From: Spirochaetia bacterium
GTDB lineage: Bacteria; Spirochaetota; Spirochaetia; SZUA-6; Bin103
Direction: 5' to 3'
Length of the DNA stretch: 64,000 bases
Assembly (NCBI GenBank): GCA_965208575.1
Contig: CBDBOV010000005.1
Location: 1,088,001-1,152,000, forward strand
In this document: positions 3,777 to 10,529 of the stretch, piece after piece
How the letters are laid out: every line of letters starts with the position of its first letter
How positions within the stretch are numbered: position 1 is the stretch's first letter
Made by a program: the position numbers and the translations under genes
The notes under the pieces: generated by a model
The model's input: the letters and a program-made list of their open reading frames with translations, nothing else
What the model was told of the DNA's origin: nothing
Database searches by the model: none

Positions 3777-6700
3777 TCAGTGCCGCAGCTTCAGGTCGAG
3801 CTTGAGCATCTGCTCGGGCCCGGCCGCGCCGCCCTCGCGGTGCTCGCCCGCGAGCTCGACGCCGAGATTCATGTGCTCCGCCTCGAACCGGGTCCCGAGC
3901 CGGAGCCGCCAGTCATCGTCGGCGAGCCCGGCCTCGGCGAACGGCGTCAGCAGCCCGTGCGAAGCCGCCCCGACCCCGTAGCCGATCCGCGCGTCGAGCG
4001 CGCCCGCATCCCCGGGCGGCGCCCCGGCCGCCGTCGGCAGCTCGTCGCGCCACAGCGCCTCCGCGCCGCCCGTGCCCGCGCCCCAGCGCGGGCTCAGCAT
4101 CAGCGACAGCCCGCGCCCGTGCGCCCCGGGCCCCATCCGCGCGGTCATGCTCAAGCCCCGCTCCTCCGCGCCCTCCTCCGAGTGCGCGGCGAGCCACCGC
4201 CCGCGCGCCTCGATGTGCAGCCGGGGCGCCTCGAGGCGCAGGCCCCCGGCCACCTCGAGGCCGGTCCCCTCGAGACCGTCGCCGCCGTCCTGGCGCCCCG
4301 CCGCCTCGACGAAGGGGGTGAGCGCGGTGTCGCCGTGCAGCGCGATGCGCCGCGACGCCTCCAGACCCAGGCGCGCCCGCCAACTGTCGGCGGTCAGCCC
4401 GTCGACGTAGTCCGGGCCGTCCTCGGTCACCATCCGCGCGATGCTCGCATCCGCCCGCACCGCGAGGTCGACCGTGGCCAGCGTGGGCAGCCCGTAGCGC
4501 ACGCCCGCCGACGCCATCCCCATCGTGAGGCCGCCGGTCTCCCACTCGCCGCCGTCCAGGCGATGCCGCGCCACGCCGCGCCCGGCGCCAAGCACGCCGC
4601 GCAGTTCAAGGCCGTCTGCAAGGGTCCAGCGCCCGTAGGGGTAGAGCGCCGTCAGCTCGGTCTCAAGACGGCCGTCTCCGGAACCCGCGGCGCCGTCGAA
4701 GCGGTAGTCCGTCTCGCCGGTGCCGTGGCTCACCGCAAGCCCCGCTACCCACGGCCCGACCCGCACGTCGATGCCGAGCCAGCCCGTGCGCAGCTCGCCC
4801 TCGTAGCGCATCCCCGCCTCCGGGCGGCCCGCGAACGCGCCCAGGTCGCCCCGGCCCCACACCGACCACAGCGGTGAAGGGGAGGAGATCCCCGACCCCT
4901 CCGCCGCGCCCAGCGTCAGCGAGAACGCGCTCGCGGGCAGCAGCTCCGACACCTCGCCGGTCCGGCTGCGCTCCGCCACCGGCGCGCAGCCGTCGCGCGC
5001 CGCGCCGCCGCCGACCGGCCCGAGCCGGTGGCCGCCGGCGGAACCCGGCGCGCAGGCCTGCTCCCTGGCCGCGAGCCCGGCGCCCGCGCCGGACACCTCG
5101 AACGGCACCGTCTCGCCCGCCAGCGTCAGCCCGCTCGCCGGCACCGAGGCCGCGAACCGCGCCCCGATGTTGCCAAGCGCGCTCGTCAGCACCTGGTGCG
5201 CCACCGCCGCCAGCGTGTGCCGCACCGCCCGCTTCACCTGCGCCGTGCGCGGGTCGATCACGGCAACCGCGAACGTCAGCACCGCCGCGTCCGCATCCGC
5301 CCGGTTGTCGTCCGCATCGTCGGCCCGCCAGGTGAAGACGTAGCGCCCCGCCGCCTCCGCCGCCGGCGTGCCCGACAGCGTCCGCGTCGCCGCGTCGACG
5401 GACAGGCCCGCAAGCCCCGCCGGATCGGAGGTCAGGGCGTAGGAGAGCGCCCCGTTGCCGCCCGTCGCCTCCGGCAGCACCACCGGCGCCATCGCCTCGC
5501 CCGGTACCAGAACCAGCGACGGCACCCGCGCCGCGCCGAAGGACGGCGCCAGGTCACGCACCGTCACCGTCACCCGGTCGCTGTCCGAAAGGCCCCCCGG
5601 GTCCGTCACCGTGAGCTGGAACTCCAGCGCGCCCGGCCGCTCCGGCGCCCTGAACGTGGTCCGCGCCGCAGTGGCGAAAAGGGTCACCGCCGCACCCGAG
5701 ACCCGGCTCCAGGCATACGTCAGCACCTCCCCGTCCGGGTCCGTGCTCCCCGTGCCGTCCAGCGTCACCGAAGCCCCGGGATCCACCGCGAGGTCGGCCC
5801 CGGCGTCGGCCACCGGCGATCCCGGCGGGGGCGCCGGCGTCTCGTTGGTCACCGTCCGCGTGAAGTCCGCCACCGCGTTGCCCGCGACGTCGCGCAGCCG
5901 GGTGTCGTGAGCCGCGGGCCGGGTGTAGCGCACCTCGACCGTCTCGCCGTGGGCCACCGCCGCCGGTAGCGTCAGCGTCACCTTCCCGGGCGTGACCCGG
6001 TTATCCACCTCGACCGCCGACGGGGTGACGCGGTCGCCGCCGCGCGCTCCATGCCCTTGTGCAGGACCTTGCACTCGATCACCCTCGACCGCCGACGGGG
6101 TGACGCGGTCGCCGCCGCCCACCATCACCTCGAACGCCGCCGGCGGCACCGCGCCGCCGGCCAGCCGCTCGTCGAAGACGATCGTGAGCGTCGCGCCGTC
6201 CACCGTCGGCGCGGCCGAAACCCGCGGCGGCGTCGTGTCACGAGGCTGGGGAGGTTGGGGAGGCTGCTGCGGCGTCCCCGCAATGCGCCAGTCCACCTTG
6301 TGGCCGGCGTCGTGGGCCAGTCCCGCATGCCCCAGAACCGCGTTCACGGTCCCGGCCCTGATCGTGCCGCCGTTCAGCGCCAGCGTGTTCTCGAGCACCG
6401 CGATGCCCACGGACGACCTGTTGGGGTCCACCACCGTGTGGGCGAAGGTCAGCACGGTCGAGCCGCTGCCGGACTCGTAGTTCGCCCGGATCTCGCCGTA
6501 GTTCGGGTCCATCTTGATCGTCAGGCGCGGCGTGCCGGTCACCGTCACCGCCTCGCTGAAGGTCACCTGCACCCGAATCTTCTCGGTCTGCCCGTAGGTC
6601 TCCGGCGTACCGCTGTCGTCCGTATCGAGCGAGGGCGTCGACCAGATGGCGACCCCGGTGACCGTCGGTGCGTTGTTGGACGCCGCCACCACGATGTCGA

Positions 6701-9700
6701 AGGTGTCGCTCACCGTGCCGCCGAAGCCGTCGCTCGCGGTCACCTTCACCGACAGCGTGCCGGCGTCGCCCGCCGCCGGCGTGCCCGAGAAGGCGCGGGT
6801 GCCCGCGGTGAAGCTCAGCCACGACGGCAGCGCGCTGTTGTCGGACTTGGTCGCGGTGTAGGTCAGGGTGTCGCCGGAGTCCGCGTCCGCGAAGGTGTTG
6901 GCCGGGAAGGCGTAGCTGAAGGCCGTGCCCGCCGCCGCCGTCTGGTCCGGGATGGCGTTCGCCACCGTGGGCGCGCTGTTGGACGCCTTCACCACAATGT
7001 TGAAGGTGTCGCTCACCGAAGCGAAGCCGTCGCTCGCGGTCACCTTCACCGACAGCGTGCCGGCGTCTGCCGACTGCGGCGTGCCCGAGAAGGTGCGGGT
7101 GCCCGCCGTGAAGGTCAGCCACGACGGCAGCGCGCCGCCGTCGGGCGTGGTCGGGGTGTAGGTCAGCGTGTCGCCGGTGTCGGTGTCCGCGAAGGTGTTG
7201 GCCGGGAAGGCGTAGCTGAAGGCCGTGCCCGCCACCGCGCCCCGGTCCGGGATGGCGTTCGCCACCGTCGGCGCGGTGTTGGACGCCTTCACCACGATGT
7301 CGAAGGTGTCGCTCACCGAAGCGAAGCCGTCGCTCGCGGTCACCTTCACCGACAGCGTGCCGGCGTTGGCCGACTGCGGCGTGCCCGAGAAGGTGCGGGT
7401 GCCCGGCGTGAAGGTCAGCCACACCGGCAGCGCGCTGCCGTCGAACTTGGTCGGGGTGTAGGTCAGCGTGTCGCCGGTGTCGGTGTCCGCGAAGGTGTTG
7501 GCCGGGAAGGCGTAGCTGAACGCCGTGCCCGCCACCGCCTTCCGGTCCGGGATGGCGTTCGCCACTGTCGGCGCGGTGTTGGACGCCTTCACCACGATGT
7601 CGAAGGTGTCGCTCACCGACGCCGTGCCGTCGCTCGCGGTCACCTTCACCGGCAGCGTGCCGGCGTTGGCCGTCTGCGGCGTGCCCGAGAAGGTGCGGGT
7701 GCTCGCGGTGAAGGTCAGCCACGACGGCAGCGCCGTGCCGTCGGACTTGGTCGCGCTGTAGACCAGGGTGTCGCCGGTGTCCTTGTCCGCGAAGGTGTTG
7801 GCCGGGAAGGCGTAGCTGAACGCCGTGCCCGCCACCGCCGCCTGGTCCGGGACGGCGTTCGCCACCGTCGGCGCGTTGTTGGACGTCTTCACCACGATGT
7901 CGAAGGTGTCGCTTACCGAAGCCTTGCCGTCGCTCGCGGTCACCTTCACCGACAGCGTGCCGATGTTCGCCGACTGCGGCGTGCCCGAGAAGGTGCGGGT
8001 GCCCGCGGTGAAGGTCAGCCACGACGGCAGCGCCGTGCCGTCGGACTTGGTCGCGGTGTAGGTCAGCGTGTCGCCGGAGTCCGCGTCCGCGAAGGTGTCG
8101 GCCGGGAAGGCGTAGCTGAACGCCGTGCCCGCCACCGCGACCCGGTCCGGGATGGCGTTCGCCACCGTGGGCGCGACGTTGACGGTGCGGATGTGCTTCC
8201 AGACCGACGGTGCGACACCGGTGGTATGCTTGATTCGCACCCAGTAGTCCGTGTTGACGGTCAGGCCGGTGAATGTGTGCTTCACATTATTGGTCCAGCC
8301 CGTCTCCGTGACCGTACTCGAGCCCGACGTGCAAAGCTCAAACCGGAAAGATGATAACCCCTGACGGATGTACGACACCGCGATGGTCGTAGCCGTCGAG
8401 ATCAAAGAGAAATGCTCCGCCCGGACATGGGGGGAGCTCGAGGCCGCGCAGGGCACGGACGTCCTCACCACGATGTCGAAGGTGTCGCTCACCGACGCCG
8501 TGCCGTCGCTCGCGGTCACCTTCACCGACAGCGTGCCGACGTTCGCCGTCTGCGGCGTGCCCGAGAAGGTGCGGGTGCCCGCGGTGAAGGTCAGCCACGA
8601 CGGCAGCGCGTTGCCGTCGGACTTGGTCGCGGTGTAGCCCAGGGTGTCGCCGGAGTCCGCGTCCGCGAAGGTGTTGGCCGGGAAGGCGTAGCTGAACGCC
8701 GTGCCCGCCTCCGCCGCCTGGTCCGGGATGGCGTTCGCCACCGTCGGCGCGTTGTTGGACGCCTTCACCACGATGTCGAAGGTGTCGCTTACCGAAGCCG
8801 TGCCGTCGCTCGCGGTCACCTTCACCGACAGCGTGCCGATGTTCGCCGACTGCGGCGTGCCCGAGAAGGTGCGGGTGCCCGCGGTGAAGGTCAGCCACGA
8901 CGGCAGCGCCGTGCCGTCGGACTTGGTCGTGGTGTAGGTCAGGGTGTCGCCGGAGTCGGTGTCCGCGAAGGTGTCGGCCGGGAAGGCGTAGCTGAACGCC
9001 GTGCCCGCCACCGCGACCCGGTCCGGGATGGCGTTCGCCACCGTGGGTGCGGCGTTGGCGGTGCGGATGTGCTGCCAGAGCGACGTGCCGCCATGAAAGA
9101 TTCGCACCCAGTGGTCCGTGTCGACGGTCAGGCCGGTGAATGTGTGCGTCGGATTGCGGCCGAGTGTCGTCGACGTGACCGTACTCGAGCCCGACGTGCA
9201 AAGCTCAAACCGGAAAGCGGTGGGCCCCTGAGAGATGTACGTCACCGTGATGGTCGTAGCCGTCGAGGTCGCCGAGAAGTGCTCCCTCTGGACATCGGGG
9301 TTGTTCTTGGCCGTGCAGGGCGGGGTCGGCTCGACGAAGATGTCGAAGGTGTCGCTCACCGACGCGATGCCGTCGCTCGCGGTCACCTTCACCGATACCG
9401 TGCCGACGTTCGCCGTCTGCGGCGTACCCGAGAAGGTGCGGGTGCTCGGCGTGAAGGTCAGCCACGACGGCAGCGCCGTGCCGTCGGACTTGGTCGCGGT
9501 GTAGCCCAGGGTGTCGCCGGAGTCGGTGTCCGCGAAGGTGTTGGCAGGGAAGGCGAAGCTGAAGGCCGTGCCCGTGTCCGCATCCTGGTCCGGGATGGCG
9601 TTCGCCACCGTGGGCGCGTTGTTGGACGACTTCACCACGATGTCGAAGGTGTCGCTCTTCACATCGACGCCGTACAACGCGGTCACCTTCACCGACAGCC

Positions 9701-10529
9701 TGCCGACGTTCCCCGGCCCCGGCGTACCCGAGAAGGTGCGGGTGCCCGGCGTGAAGGTCAGCCACGACGGCAGCGCCGTGTTGTTGGGCTTGGTGGCTTT
9801 GTATTTCAGCGTTTGGCCGGAGGCCGCGACCGCGAACGTGCTGGCCGGGAAGGCGTAGCTGAACGCCGTGCCCGCCAGCGCCGCCCGGTCCGGGATGGCG
9901 TTCGCCAACGTGGGCCTGACTCTGGCGTAGCCGAGGACCTCCATCTTGATGGACGCGCCGCCGCTTTCGCTGCCTGCCATTTTGCCAGTATTCCCAATGC
10001 TCCAGCCCGCGGCGCCGCCGCTGTCCTCGTTGTCGCTCTGGGTTGCGTCAACACGGACCTTGGCGCCGAAGAGCTGCACCCAGTACGTCGTGTTGGGACT
10101 CAGTGAGCCGCTCCCGACGAACAGTGCGTTCTGAAAGGAACCGGACAGGGCCGGACTCCGCGGCGTGGTAATGAGGGTGCCGGCGCGGCCCCCCTGGCGT
10201 ATCGTCATATCGTAAGAGCCGGGGGAACTAGTTGCCCGCTTGGCTACGAGCTTCACGCCCCGCAATACATAGCCCAAGGCGTTGCTGCCGGTCGTGAACG
10301 ACGTGTCCGTGCTAGCGAAAGTGATGTTGCCGTCGCCCCACGACGTCTGGCCGAGGTTGGAGACCAGCTTGGCCGTGGTCTGCGCCTCGGCGGTGTGCGC
10401 GCCCGGCAGCAGGAACAGCGCCGCCGCGAGCAGGCACACGCCCAGCGGCGCGAGGCGGGCGAGGCCGGGAGGCCGGAGTCGGGAAAGAAAGCGGGGAGGC
10501 GATGCGGAAAGAATGGACGGGGCCGTCAC
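3777..10529 (-). CDS. Large autotransporter adhesin: variable N-terminal domain, 9 cadherin-like/putative Ig repeats, 2 FN3-like domains, SwmB-like and PKD-like domains, C-terminal beta-barrel
   Basis: Signal-like LLAAALFLLPGAHTAEA; nine APTVANAIPD...LPSWLTF...FSGTP repeats; PVADAGAD..LDGTGSTDPDG PKD motif; WSVWGRG/LYPYGRW/LTPFVE barrel motifs. Confidence 0.85.
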   Translation of the reverse strand: MTAPSILSASPPRFLSRLRPPGLARLAPLGVCLLAAALFLLPGAHTAEAQTTAKLVSNLGQTSWGDGNITFASTDTSFTTGSNALGYVLRGVKLVAKRATSSPGSYDMTIRQGGRAGTLITTPRSPALSGSFQNALFVGSGSLSPNTTYWVQLFGAKVRVDATQSDNEDSGGAAGWSIGNTGKMAGSESGGASIKMEVLGYARVRPTLANAIPDRAALAGTAFSYAFPASTFAVAASGQTLKYKATKPNNTALPSWLTFTPGTRTFSGTPGPGNVGRLSVKVTALYGVDVKSDTFDIVVKSSNNAPTVANAIPDQDADTGTAFSFAFPANTFADTDSGDTLGYTATKSDGTALPSWLTFTPSTRTFSGTPQTANVGTVSVKVTASDGIASVSDTFDIFVEPTPPCTAKNNPDVQREHFSATSTATTITVTYISQGPTAFRFELCTSGSSTVTSTTLGRNPTHTFTGLTVDTDHWVRIFHGGTSLWQHIRTANAAPTVANAIPDRVAVAGTAFSYAFPADTFADTDSGDTLTYTTTKSDGTALPSWLTFTAGTRTFSGTPQSANIGTLSVKVTASDGTASVSDTFDIVVKASNNAPTVANAIPDQAAEAGTAFSYAFPANTFADADSGDTLGYTATKSDGNALPSWLTFTAGTRTFSGTPQTANVGTLSVKVTASDGTASVSDTFDIVVRTSVPCAASSSPHVRAEHFSLISTATTIAVSYIRQGLSSFRFELCTSGSSTVTETGWTNNVKHTFTGLTVNTDYWVRIKHTTGVAPSVWKHIRTVNVAPTVANAIPDRVAVAGTAFSYAFPADTFADADSGDTLTYTATKSDGTALPSWLTFTAGTRTFSGTPQSANIGTLSVKVTASDGKASVSDTFDIVVKTSNNAPTVANAVPDQAAVAGTAFSYAFPANTFADKDTGDTLVYSATKSDGTALPSWLTFTASTRTFSGTPQTANAGTLPVKVTASDGTASVSDTFDIVVKASNTAPTVANAIPDRKAVAGTAFSYAFPANTFADTDTGDTLTYTPTKFDGSALPVWLTFTPGTRTFSGTPQSANAGTLSVKVTASDGFASVSDTFDIVVKASNTAPTVANAIPDRGAVAGTAFSYAFPANTFADTDTGDTLTYTPTTPDGGALPSWLTFTAGTRTFSGTPQSADAGTLSVKVTASDGFASVSDTFNIVVKASNSAPTVANAIPDQTAAAGTAFSYAFPANTFADADSGDTLTYTATKSDNSALPSWLSFTAGTRAFSGTPAAGDAGTLSVKVTASDGFGGTVSDTFDIVVAASNNAPTVTGVAIWSTPSLDTDDSGTPETYGQTEKIRVQVTFSEAVTVTGTPRLTIKMDPNYGEIRANYESGSGSTVLTFAHTVVDPNRSSVGIAVLENTLALNGGTIRAGTVNAVLGHAGLAHDAGHKVDWRIAGTPQQPPQPPQPRDTTPPRVSAAPTVDGATLTIVFDERLAGGAVPPAAFEVMVGGGDRVTPSAVEGDRVQGPAQGHGARGGDRVTPSAVEVDNRVTPGKVTLTLPAAVAHGETVEVRYTRPAAHDTRLRDVAGNAVADFTRTVTNETPAPPPGSPVADAGADLAVDPGASVTLDGTGSTDPDGEVLTYAWSRVSGAAVTLFATAARTTFRAPERPGALEFQLTVTDPGGLSDSDRVTVTVRDLAPSFGAARVPSLVLVPGEAMAPVVLPEATGGNGALSYALTSDPAGLAGLSVDAATRTLSGTPAAEAAGRYVFTWRADDADDNRADADAAVLTFAVAVIDPRTAQVKRAVRHTLAAVAHQVLTSALGNIGARFAASVPASGLTLAGETVPFEVSGAGAGLAAREQACAPGSAGGHRLGPVGGGAARDGCAPVAERSRTGEVSELLPASAFSLTLGAAEGSGISSPSPLWSVWGRGDLGAFAGRPEAGMRYEGELRTGWLGIDVRVGPWVAGLAVSHGTGETDYRFDGAAGSGDGRLETELTALYPYGRWTLADGLELRGVLGAGRGVARHRLDGGEWETGGLTMGMASAGVRYGLPTLATVDLAVRADASIARMVTEDGPDYVDGLTADSWRARLGLEASRRIALHGDTALTPFVEAAGRQDGGDGLEGTGLEVAGGLRLEAPRLHIEARGRWLAAHSEEGAEERGLSMTARMGPGAHGRGLSLMLSPRWGAGTGGAEALWRDELPTAAGAPPGDAGALDARIGYGVGAASHGLLTPFAEAGLADDDWRLRLGTRFEAEHMNLGVELAGEHREGGAAGPEQMLKLDLKLRH
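6008..6118. repeat. Exact 36-bp direct repeat flanking a 39-bp insert
   Basis: CCTCGACCGCCGACGGGGTGACGCGGTCGCCGCCGC at 6008-6043 and 6083-6118; unique 39 bp between. Confidence 0.9.
6670..9915 (-). repeat. Nine ~300-bp intragenic repeats (cadherin-like/putative Ig domains)
   Basis: Near-identical units with 300-bp period (e.g. 6925/7225/7525/7825), interrupted twice by FN3-like domains. Confidence 0.9.

Follow-up and report, generated by a model that had tools for sequence, protein, structure and literature searches.

How does a gene for a bacterial surface protein come to carry an exact 36-nucleotide duplication wrapped around 39 nucleotides that match another gene family? This question is raised by a locus on contig CBDBOV010000005.1 of a Spirochaetia bacterium (assembly GCA_965208575.1), within a stretch of 64,000 nucleotides (positions 1,088,001 to 1,152,000) that we call the window. 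In our notation the 6.5-Mb genome is G000, its contigs are C1 to C6, and the window is G000:C5:1088001-1152000; coordinates given without a contig refer to the window. The structure lies within an autotransporter gene, and we consider it probable that it records a recent, natural, off-target integration, in frame, by the organism's own Cas4/1-Cas2 proteins, which belong to a type I-G CRISPR system. Read directly were the anatomy of the structure, its match to the native lengths, the presence of intact cas genes, the derivation of the insert from a different gene family, the TTC found in homologs of the insert and the single-copy state of paralogs of the host gene. An initial annotation had proposed from the geometry that the locus is an off-target spacer integration, and the lengths, the Cas genes and the other-gene origin with its TTC all fit that proposal.

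Anatomy of the duplication and its insert

The two copies of the 36-mer (CCTCGACCGCCGACGGGGTGACGCGGTCGCCGCCGC) are identical at 36 of 36 positions, and the 39-mer between them occurs a single time in the genome. Both the coordinates and the uniqueness agree with the initial annotation. Because neither the bases preceding the copies (A at 6007 versus C at 6082) nor those following them (G at 6044 versus C at 6119) agree, the duplication is exactly 36 nucleotides and the insert exactly 39 nucleotides long. The features of the structure are as follows.

6008..6043, no strand assigned: copy 1 of the 36-nucleotide target duplication, of the same length as the native CRISPR repeat
6011..6036, no strand assigned: perfect 7-bp inverted repeat in the 36-mer (arms 6011-6017 and 6030-6036, present again at 6086-6092 and 6105-6111)
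6044..6082, minus strand: 39-nucleotide insert of spacer length, an AAA-ATPase/PD-(D/E)XK-like gene fragment that reads VIECKVLHKGMER
6083..6118, no strand assigned: copy 2 of the 36-nucleotide target duplication, exactly identical to copy 1

The inverted repeat CGACCGC..GCGGTCG, which had been recognized earlier, is indeed perfect over 7 bp. Arms of 7 bp or longer are present in 2.9% of 20,000 random 36-mers drawn from this genome, and Cas1-Cas2 acting off target is known to favor palindromic DNA. Since the two 36-mers are still identical at every position, the event appears to be recent. A tandem duplication or slippage was rejected as the source of the structure, given that the flanks are unrelated at period 75 (identities of 0.33 and 0.37 in our genome-wide duplication scan) and that the insert matches a different gene family.

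The native type I-G CRISPR-Cas system

A profile search of the whole genome yielded one Cas1 match, which is located inside a CRISPR locus. The corresponding open reading frame (ORF) of 599 amino acids is a Cas4g/Cas1g fusion that covers the full NF049935 profile (positions 1-546 of 546) with 812.9 bits against a cut-off of 560, and it is adjoined by cas2 (63 bits). The array (G000:C4:1137374-1142153) carries 65 repeats of 36 nucleotides, all 65 identical (GTTTCCGCCGGTGAATTCCGGCGGCCTCATTGAAGC), and 64 spacers of 35-40 nucleotides, whose lengths are 38 (24 spacers), 39 (21), 36 (8), 40 (6), 37 (3) and 35 (2) nucleotides. Periods of 74 and 75 are therefore the commonest, accounting for 45 of the 64 spacers. 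The check for cas1 and cas2 that the initial annotation had named is answered by the presence of the Cas4/1 fusion and cas2, and the proposed match to native lengths holds as well, in that 36 + 39 = 75 is among the native periods.

Beyond the array, opposite cas4/1 and cas2, are cas3, csx17/cas8g and cas7g, with matches to TIGR04113 (csx17/cas8g, 587.1 bits), TIGR02570 (114.4 bits) and TIGR01587 (cas3_core, above its cut-off). Because these genes accompany the Cas4/Cas1 fusion and cas2 within a single locus (C4:1127297-1143900), the system is a complete type I-G system. The native repeat, which also has 7-bp inverted-repeat arms, starts with GTTTCC and ends with ATTGAAGC. The type I-G repeat of M. 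barkeri (PMC10504553) has the same ends, and orienting the array accordingly places the leader next to cas2. Outside the array, no orphan copies of the native repeat with nine or fewer mismatches were found in the genome. Relatives from the same genus and family have the same repeat family, and their spacer lengths have modes at 38 and 39 nucleotides (881 unique spacers).

Several other properties of the locus were observed. Spacers 59 and 60 of the array are identical, spacers 30 and 31 are one base apart, and spacers 32 and 40 look as if they were taken from overlapping parts of related targets. For spacer 63, on the trailer side, a congener (G006) contains a 91% match about 16 kb from its arrays. 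Upstream of cas4/1 on C4, an ORF of 171 amino acids (L009:6221-6736, minus strand) gives a sub-threshold match to a HEPN domain (RiboL-PSP, E 6.5e-5), and the two large ORFs that neighbor it have no family match.

Origin of the 39-nucleotide insert

When read on the minus strand in a frame shifted from that of the host, all 13 codons of the insert end in G or C, as the initial annotation had stated; in the host gene the fragment is out of frame relative to its gene-family reading. The nearest matches fall in the C-terminal region of multi-copy proteins of about 530 amino acids that carry AAA_22/AAA_35 domains. The suggested likeness to the C-terminus of an ATPase-nuclease is thus confirmed for the ATPase family, and the nuclease portion corresponds to a weak PDDEXK_9 match (E 0.018) that is below the Pfam cut-off.

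The genome itself has five copies of this family, each with 5-8 mismatches to the 39-nucleotide insert. When 92 genomes of the order were compared, only 4 of 13 genomes of a sister genus contained matches with three or fewer mismatches, against 0 of 10 genomes of the organism's own genus, and the nearest copies, all from the sister genus, have 3 mismatches in 39. Because the identical 36-mers indicate a young event, and yet the resident copies have diverged by 5-8 positions, the donor is not expected to be any copy now in the assembly. The DNA of a related bacterium is a likely source of the insert, as is a copy of the gene that was lost or left unassembled.

The trinucleotide at the 5' side of the fragment is TTC in all nine homologous loci (five in this genome and four in relatives), and the insert starts directly after the position that this TTC occupies. 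Such a start is expected if Cas4 had removed a protospacer-adjacent motif (PAM), where the motif is judged from the flanks of the homologs and from the TTN of another type I-G system rather than from the true donor. A TTN precedes a random position at a frequency of 2.6% per strand, or 5.1% in either orientation. According to one study (PMC6547450), type I-U/I-G Cas4/1 selects an upstream TTN, and TTA, TTT, TTC and TTG all license interference. As for the earlier idea that a PAM should flank the donor, the exact donor was not found in the genome or in the collections searched, and the TTC at nine of nine homologs fits TTN.

The five resident copies of the family are located at C4:497846, C4:503889, C4:514691, C4:545917 and C6:291279, and four of them are clustered in a 50-kb region whose other genes are ordinary transporter genes. 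A plasmid-borne donor was considered, and the evidence was too weak: homologs of about 40% identity are present on 16 of 72,556 plasmid records, mostly large cyanobacterial plasmids, and none was found in phages.

The host gene and its paralogs

The structure interrupts a domain of a repeat-rich surface protein, whose relevant features are listed below.

3777..10529, minus strand: host gene, coding for a repeat-rich surface protein of the autotransporter type with 2250 amino acids (ORF and Pfam)
4278..4859, minus strand: match to PF03797 over profile positions 2-204 of 255 (piece 3780-5129, minus strand, residues 91-284)
5913..6026, minus strand: C-terminal half of SWM_repeat, profile positions 50-85 of 86 (residues 133-170 of 5700-6422, minus strand, best stretch)

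The Autotransporter beta-domain (PF03797) is matched on the last 450 amino acids with 43.5 bits (cut-off 26), and other Pfam matches in the protein are He_PIG (Ig-like, in 10 stretches), Big_9, a K319L-like PKD domain and SWM_repeat. The last of these, also an Ig-like domain, is matched in two stretches because it is split by the insertion. Since 75 is divisible by three and the added sequence has no stop in the host frame, the gene stays open, in agreement with the initial annotation. The 75 nucleotides add 25 residues within the SWM_repeat domain, and the ORF across the site reads ..GGDRVTPSAVE[GDRVQGPAQGHGARGGDRVTPSAVE]VD.. on the minus strand, where the outer brackets mark the added part.

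The genome also encodes two paralogs in which the 36-mer region is present once. The closer one (C4:784546-785176), with about 90% identity, is shorter here by 78 nucleotides, and the other (C6:471791-472436), with 77% identity, by 75 nucleotides. In both, SWM_repeat is matched in one stretch (profile positions 2-85 of 86) with 60.6 and 54.7 bits, respectively. With single-copy, unsplit domains in its same-genome paralogs, the insertion appears to be the derived state.

An AlphaFold model of the split domain, built from a three-sequence alignment, has a mean predicted local distance difference test (pLDDT) score of 54.9, with block means of 72-87 in the sandwich. The sandwich is built with the second copy of the 36-mer, and residues 104-127, which comprise the first copy and the insert, have pLDDT values below 50. 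This model hints that the insertion might be tolerated as a looped-out segment.

Older structures with similar geometry

An exact scan for duplications of at least 24 nucleotides around inserts of at least 20 nucleotides, at periods of 45-120 and with the CRISPR array excluded, returned 141 structures. Nineteen of these have unrelated flanks and are mostly short-unit tandem repeats, leaving about six after inspection by eye; a 36-nucleotide duplication was found at this site only. A divergence-tolerant scan at periods of 50-110 returned 15 clean structures, three of which have periods of 74-75 with duplications of 36-38 nucleotides and totals of 75, 75 and 74 nucleotides. For 15 structures spread over 61 periods, about 0.5 would be expected at period 74-75, versus 3 observed; without the case that prompted the scan, the numbers are about 0.46 expected and 2 observed. 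This excess is suggestive only. The search for further duplication-plus-insert structures that the initial annotation had proposed thus uncovered two older look-alikes, at periods 75 and 74.

The first look-alike (C5:279749-279859; L068 350-460) has a period of 75, copies of 36-38 nucleotides that are 89% alike and a unique insert of 37-39 nucleotides. It is located in the upstream part of a gene from a multi-copy HNH-endonuclease family, four paralogs of which lack the 75 nucleotides. No match to the insert with three or fewer mismatches was found in 23 relatives. This structure may be an older off-target integration. The second (C6:873173-873282; L077 1463-1572) has a period of 74, copies of 36-38 nucleotides that are likewise 89% alike, the palindrome CTTCGGCGCCGAAG and an insert of 36-38 nucleotides, and it is also present at the orthologous locus of the congener G006. 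Its insert corresponds to a fragment of a gene resembling those for zinc alcohol dehydrogenases (Zn-ADH-like), which is found in six congeners and is absent from this genome; the closest homolog, in G007, has 2 mismatches in 36. Both older targets have central palindromes by reading.

These observations permit a broader view, which we hold only tentatively: the type I-G integrase might repeatedly mis-write fragments of neighbors' genes into palindromic sites, having left one fresh footprint and at least two old ones (C5:279749 and C6:873173). If so, CRISPR adaptation would, beyond its role in immunity, contribute insertions and new protein sequence in nature to a measurable extent, and such events could survive inside genes as in-frame insertions.

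The same totals could instead reflect a lineage-specific process, independent of CRISPR, that adds a nearly constant 72-75 nucleotides by pairing a short DNA copy with a compensating duplication of the target. The narrow range of the three totals is what such a process would produce, and in both older structures a duplication length of 38 nucleotides, instead of 36, is an equally possible reading. However, the totals coincide with the native periods that occur most often, 74 and 75, the inserts were not copied from the genome's own DNA, and the fresh event, whose ends are unambiguous, has a duplication of exactly 36 nucleotides. We therefore judge a process of this type to be quite improbable.

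Other candidates from the exact scan were rejected as analogues. The structure at C4:423454 (61 + 56 nucleotides) is located at the end of a multi-copy element resembling an insertion sequence (IS), and those at C4:1301298 (43 + 40) and C4:718172 (28 + 69) resemble diverged tandem duplications. Identical 61-nucleotide stretches of the IS-like element are present at C4:423454-423631 and at no fewer than 10 further sites, distributed over C1, C3, C4, C5 and C6; at C4:423454, the end of the element is partially duplicated locally, over 117 nucleotides. Tandem units of 72 nucleotides (24 amino acids) that are leucine-rich-repeat-like (..LTSLPPGVFDDLTAL..) were seen at C3:557257-557805 and at several other loci of period 72.

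Evidence against integration and alternative explanations

Several findings weigh against our preferred explanation, off-target integration by Cas4/1-Cas2. The target is not repeat-like in sequence: depending on orientation, it matches the native repeat at 14 or 10 of 36 positions, which is not significant against a background of 9.7 +/- 2.6, and its flanks have no likeness to the leader when compared by eye. The exact 39-mer gave 0 matches in the genome_contigs, viral_contigs and metagenome_contigs collections, such that the PAM is deduced from homologs; a degenerate pattern for the same 13 residues gave 0 matches in genome_contigs and metagenome_contigs, and a relaxed pattern gave 0 in viral_contigs. 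Thus, an exact donor locus, which the initial annotation had anticipated, was not found in the genome or in the collections searched.

No protospacer that would reveal this lineage's own PAM was found for the spacers of this organism or its relatives. Specifically, outside the array the genome contains no match of at least 26 nucleotides to any of the 64 native spacers, the whole array has no match among phages and plasmids, the 881 spacers of relatives give one partial 26-nucleotide match to this genome, all 945 spacers give 0 matches outside arrays among the analysed loci, and 28-nucleotide cores of three native spacers give 0 matches in viral_contigs. An orthologous empty allele was also not found: in the 40 relatives searched, this region of the gene has no ortholog, and the best match is about 75% identical. 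For the older insert at C6:873173, the flanks of the homolog in G007 are not TTN. Finally, among the Logan contigs listed, which constitute our read-level evidence, none bridges positions 5990-6130, and the junctions rest on the assembly itself.

This last point bears on whether the structure is an artefact of assembly or consensus, particularly since 72% of the sampled words, and not all of them, are present in the run that contains the organism. Yet misassembly would not be expected to produce an exact 36-nucleotide duplication around an unrelated gene fragment in frame. The structure is on a contig of 1.26 Mb (C5) in an assembly of six contigs, and contigs from the same run (X7) match exactly on both flanks (5500-5820 and 6186-6314, 0 differences, depth about 19.8). 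In addition, the older footprint with the same geometry at C6:873173 was recovered in both G000 and G006, which are independent assemblies. An artefact is accordingly the least probable of the explanations considered, and we regard it as very unlikely. The six contigs belong together, because their tetranucleotide correlations are all at least 0.995 and because the IS-like element, with its identical 61-mers, is common to five of them, including C4 and C5.

One X7 contig that skips from 6031 to 6110 (78 nucleotides; depth 15.5, with other differences) was considered as an empty allele and was set aside, as it fits the C4 paralog instead. Several contigs from runs X7, X8 and X2 match the window from 6044 onward and have sequence resembling the ATPase gene before that position; these may derive from genes of the donor family. 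Runs labelled as sponge or marine metagenomes have shares of 0.04-0.17, from which we draw no conclusion about habitat.

A further alternative is template switching, of the kind described as fork stalling and template switching (FoSTeS) or microhomology-mediated break-induced replication (MMBIR), or capture of a fragment by end joining. Here, 39 nucleotides would have been copied from elsewhere before synthesis resumed 36 nucleotides back, and the CRISPR-like lengths would be coincidental. The lack of an exact donor is compatible with this route, as is the fact that the action of the enzyme is deduced solely from its product. Likewise, 12 of the 15 clean structures are unexplained duplications of other sizes with unique inserts, and the homolog of the C6:873173 insert has no adjacent TTN. 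However, template switching requires four independent coincidences, namely the repeat length, a modal spacer length, TTC at nine of nine homologs and a palindromic target. There is also no microhomology between the donor flanks, as judged from those of the homologs, and the host junctions, and the insert was not copied from this genome. On balance we find this route improbable, if slightly less so than a constant-length process.

A model for the event

Off-target integration by the type I-G enzymes could have proceeded as follows. A prespacer would have been cut from an AAA-ATPase/PD-(D/E)XK-like gene, either foreign or derived from a relative, just downstream of a TTC PAM that was removed by Cas4. 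Two transesterifications would then have taken place 36 bp apart at a palindrome-bearing chromosomal site instead of the leader-repeat junction, with the spacing set by a ruler adapted to the native 36-nucleotide repeat. Repair of the resulting gaps would leave the 36 bp doubled on both sides of the 39-nucleotide spacer.

The unit is not expected to be a working CRISPR locus. Because its pseudo-repeats are host coding sequence without the native repeat sequence and without the ATTGAAGC end, processing of a CRISPR RNA (crRNA) is not expected. For similar reasons, the term 'neo-array' in the initial annotation goes too far, given that the 36-mer is not repeat-like, the insert is single and the flanks are host coding sequence. 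The accompanying suggestion of a mechanism that diversifies a surface adhesin is also an overreach, since an isolated event of this type, affecting one gene, amounts to an accident and not to a diversification system.

Comparison with known systems

Off-target integration by Cas1-Cas2, yielding 'neo-CRISPR' units, was reported by Nivala, Shipman and Church in 2018 (Nat Microbiol 3:310; cited in PMC7054753, PMC6698737 and bioRxiv 10.1101/148544). The work used the type I-E system of E. coli with over-produced Cas1-Cas2 and supplied oligonucleotides, and according to the citing preprint (bioRxiv 10.1101/148544) its evidence from two other species was circumstantial only. The structure described here is similar in having a spacer-length insert at a non-CRISPR chromosomal site with a repeat-length duplication around it. 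It differs in being natural, in involving a type I-G system with a Cas4/1 fusion, in lying in frame within a gene and in having a PAM-consistent origin. In our full-text literature search, we found neither a natural case of off-target integration that is in frame within a gene nor a case attributed to a type I-G system.

In canonical type I-G adaptation (Almendros 2019, PMC6547450; PMC10504553), Cas4g/Cas1g acts with Cas2, and the upstream TTN is removed before integration, as we propose for this event. Canonical integration occurs at the leader-repeat junction, whereas the site reported here is coding DNA without similarity to repeat or leader. The type I-G system of Geobacter has spacers of 36 bp, versus mostly 38-39 nucleotides in this organism. 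In vitro, Cas1-Cas2 from Pyrococcus furiosus also uses non-CRISPR DNA as a surrogate repeat, and the sites in the plasmid assay of that study (PMC6698737) shared sequence motifs with the repeat; in the present case, target and repeat have nothing in common beyond their palindromic character and the spacing.

Insertion of a casposon or transposon resembles the proposed event in that staggered strand transfer followed by repair creates a direct duplication. The 39-nucleotide insert, unlike such elements, lacks both terminal inverted repeats and the capacity to encode a protein, and the sole Cas1 homolog of the genome resides in the CRISPR locus. Casposons generate target-site duplications of 14-15 bp, far shorter than the 36 nucleotides seen here.

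Documentation of off-target integration comes mainly from over-produced E. coli Cas1-Cas2. The locus suggests that type I-G Cas4/1-Cas2 can probably use a site that is merely palindromic, and that the product can persist in frame within a gene for a surface protein. It offers a concrete substrate for integration assays, and the combination of native repeat length with native spacer length provides a search image for counting such scars across genomes. The kind of event is known from neo-CRISPR integration, and this case is notable for the completeness of its evidence, with the agent, the 36-nucleotide ruler, the 39-nucleotide spacer, the PAM-consistent origin and the single-copy state of the paralogs brought together in one genome. 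It probably represents a mistake that is familiar from the laboratory and is rarely this clean in nature.

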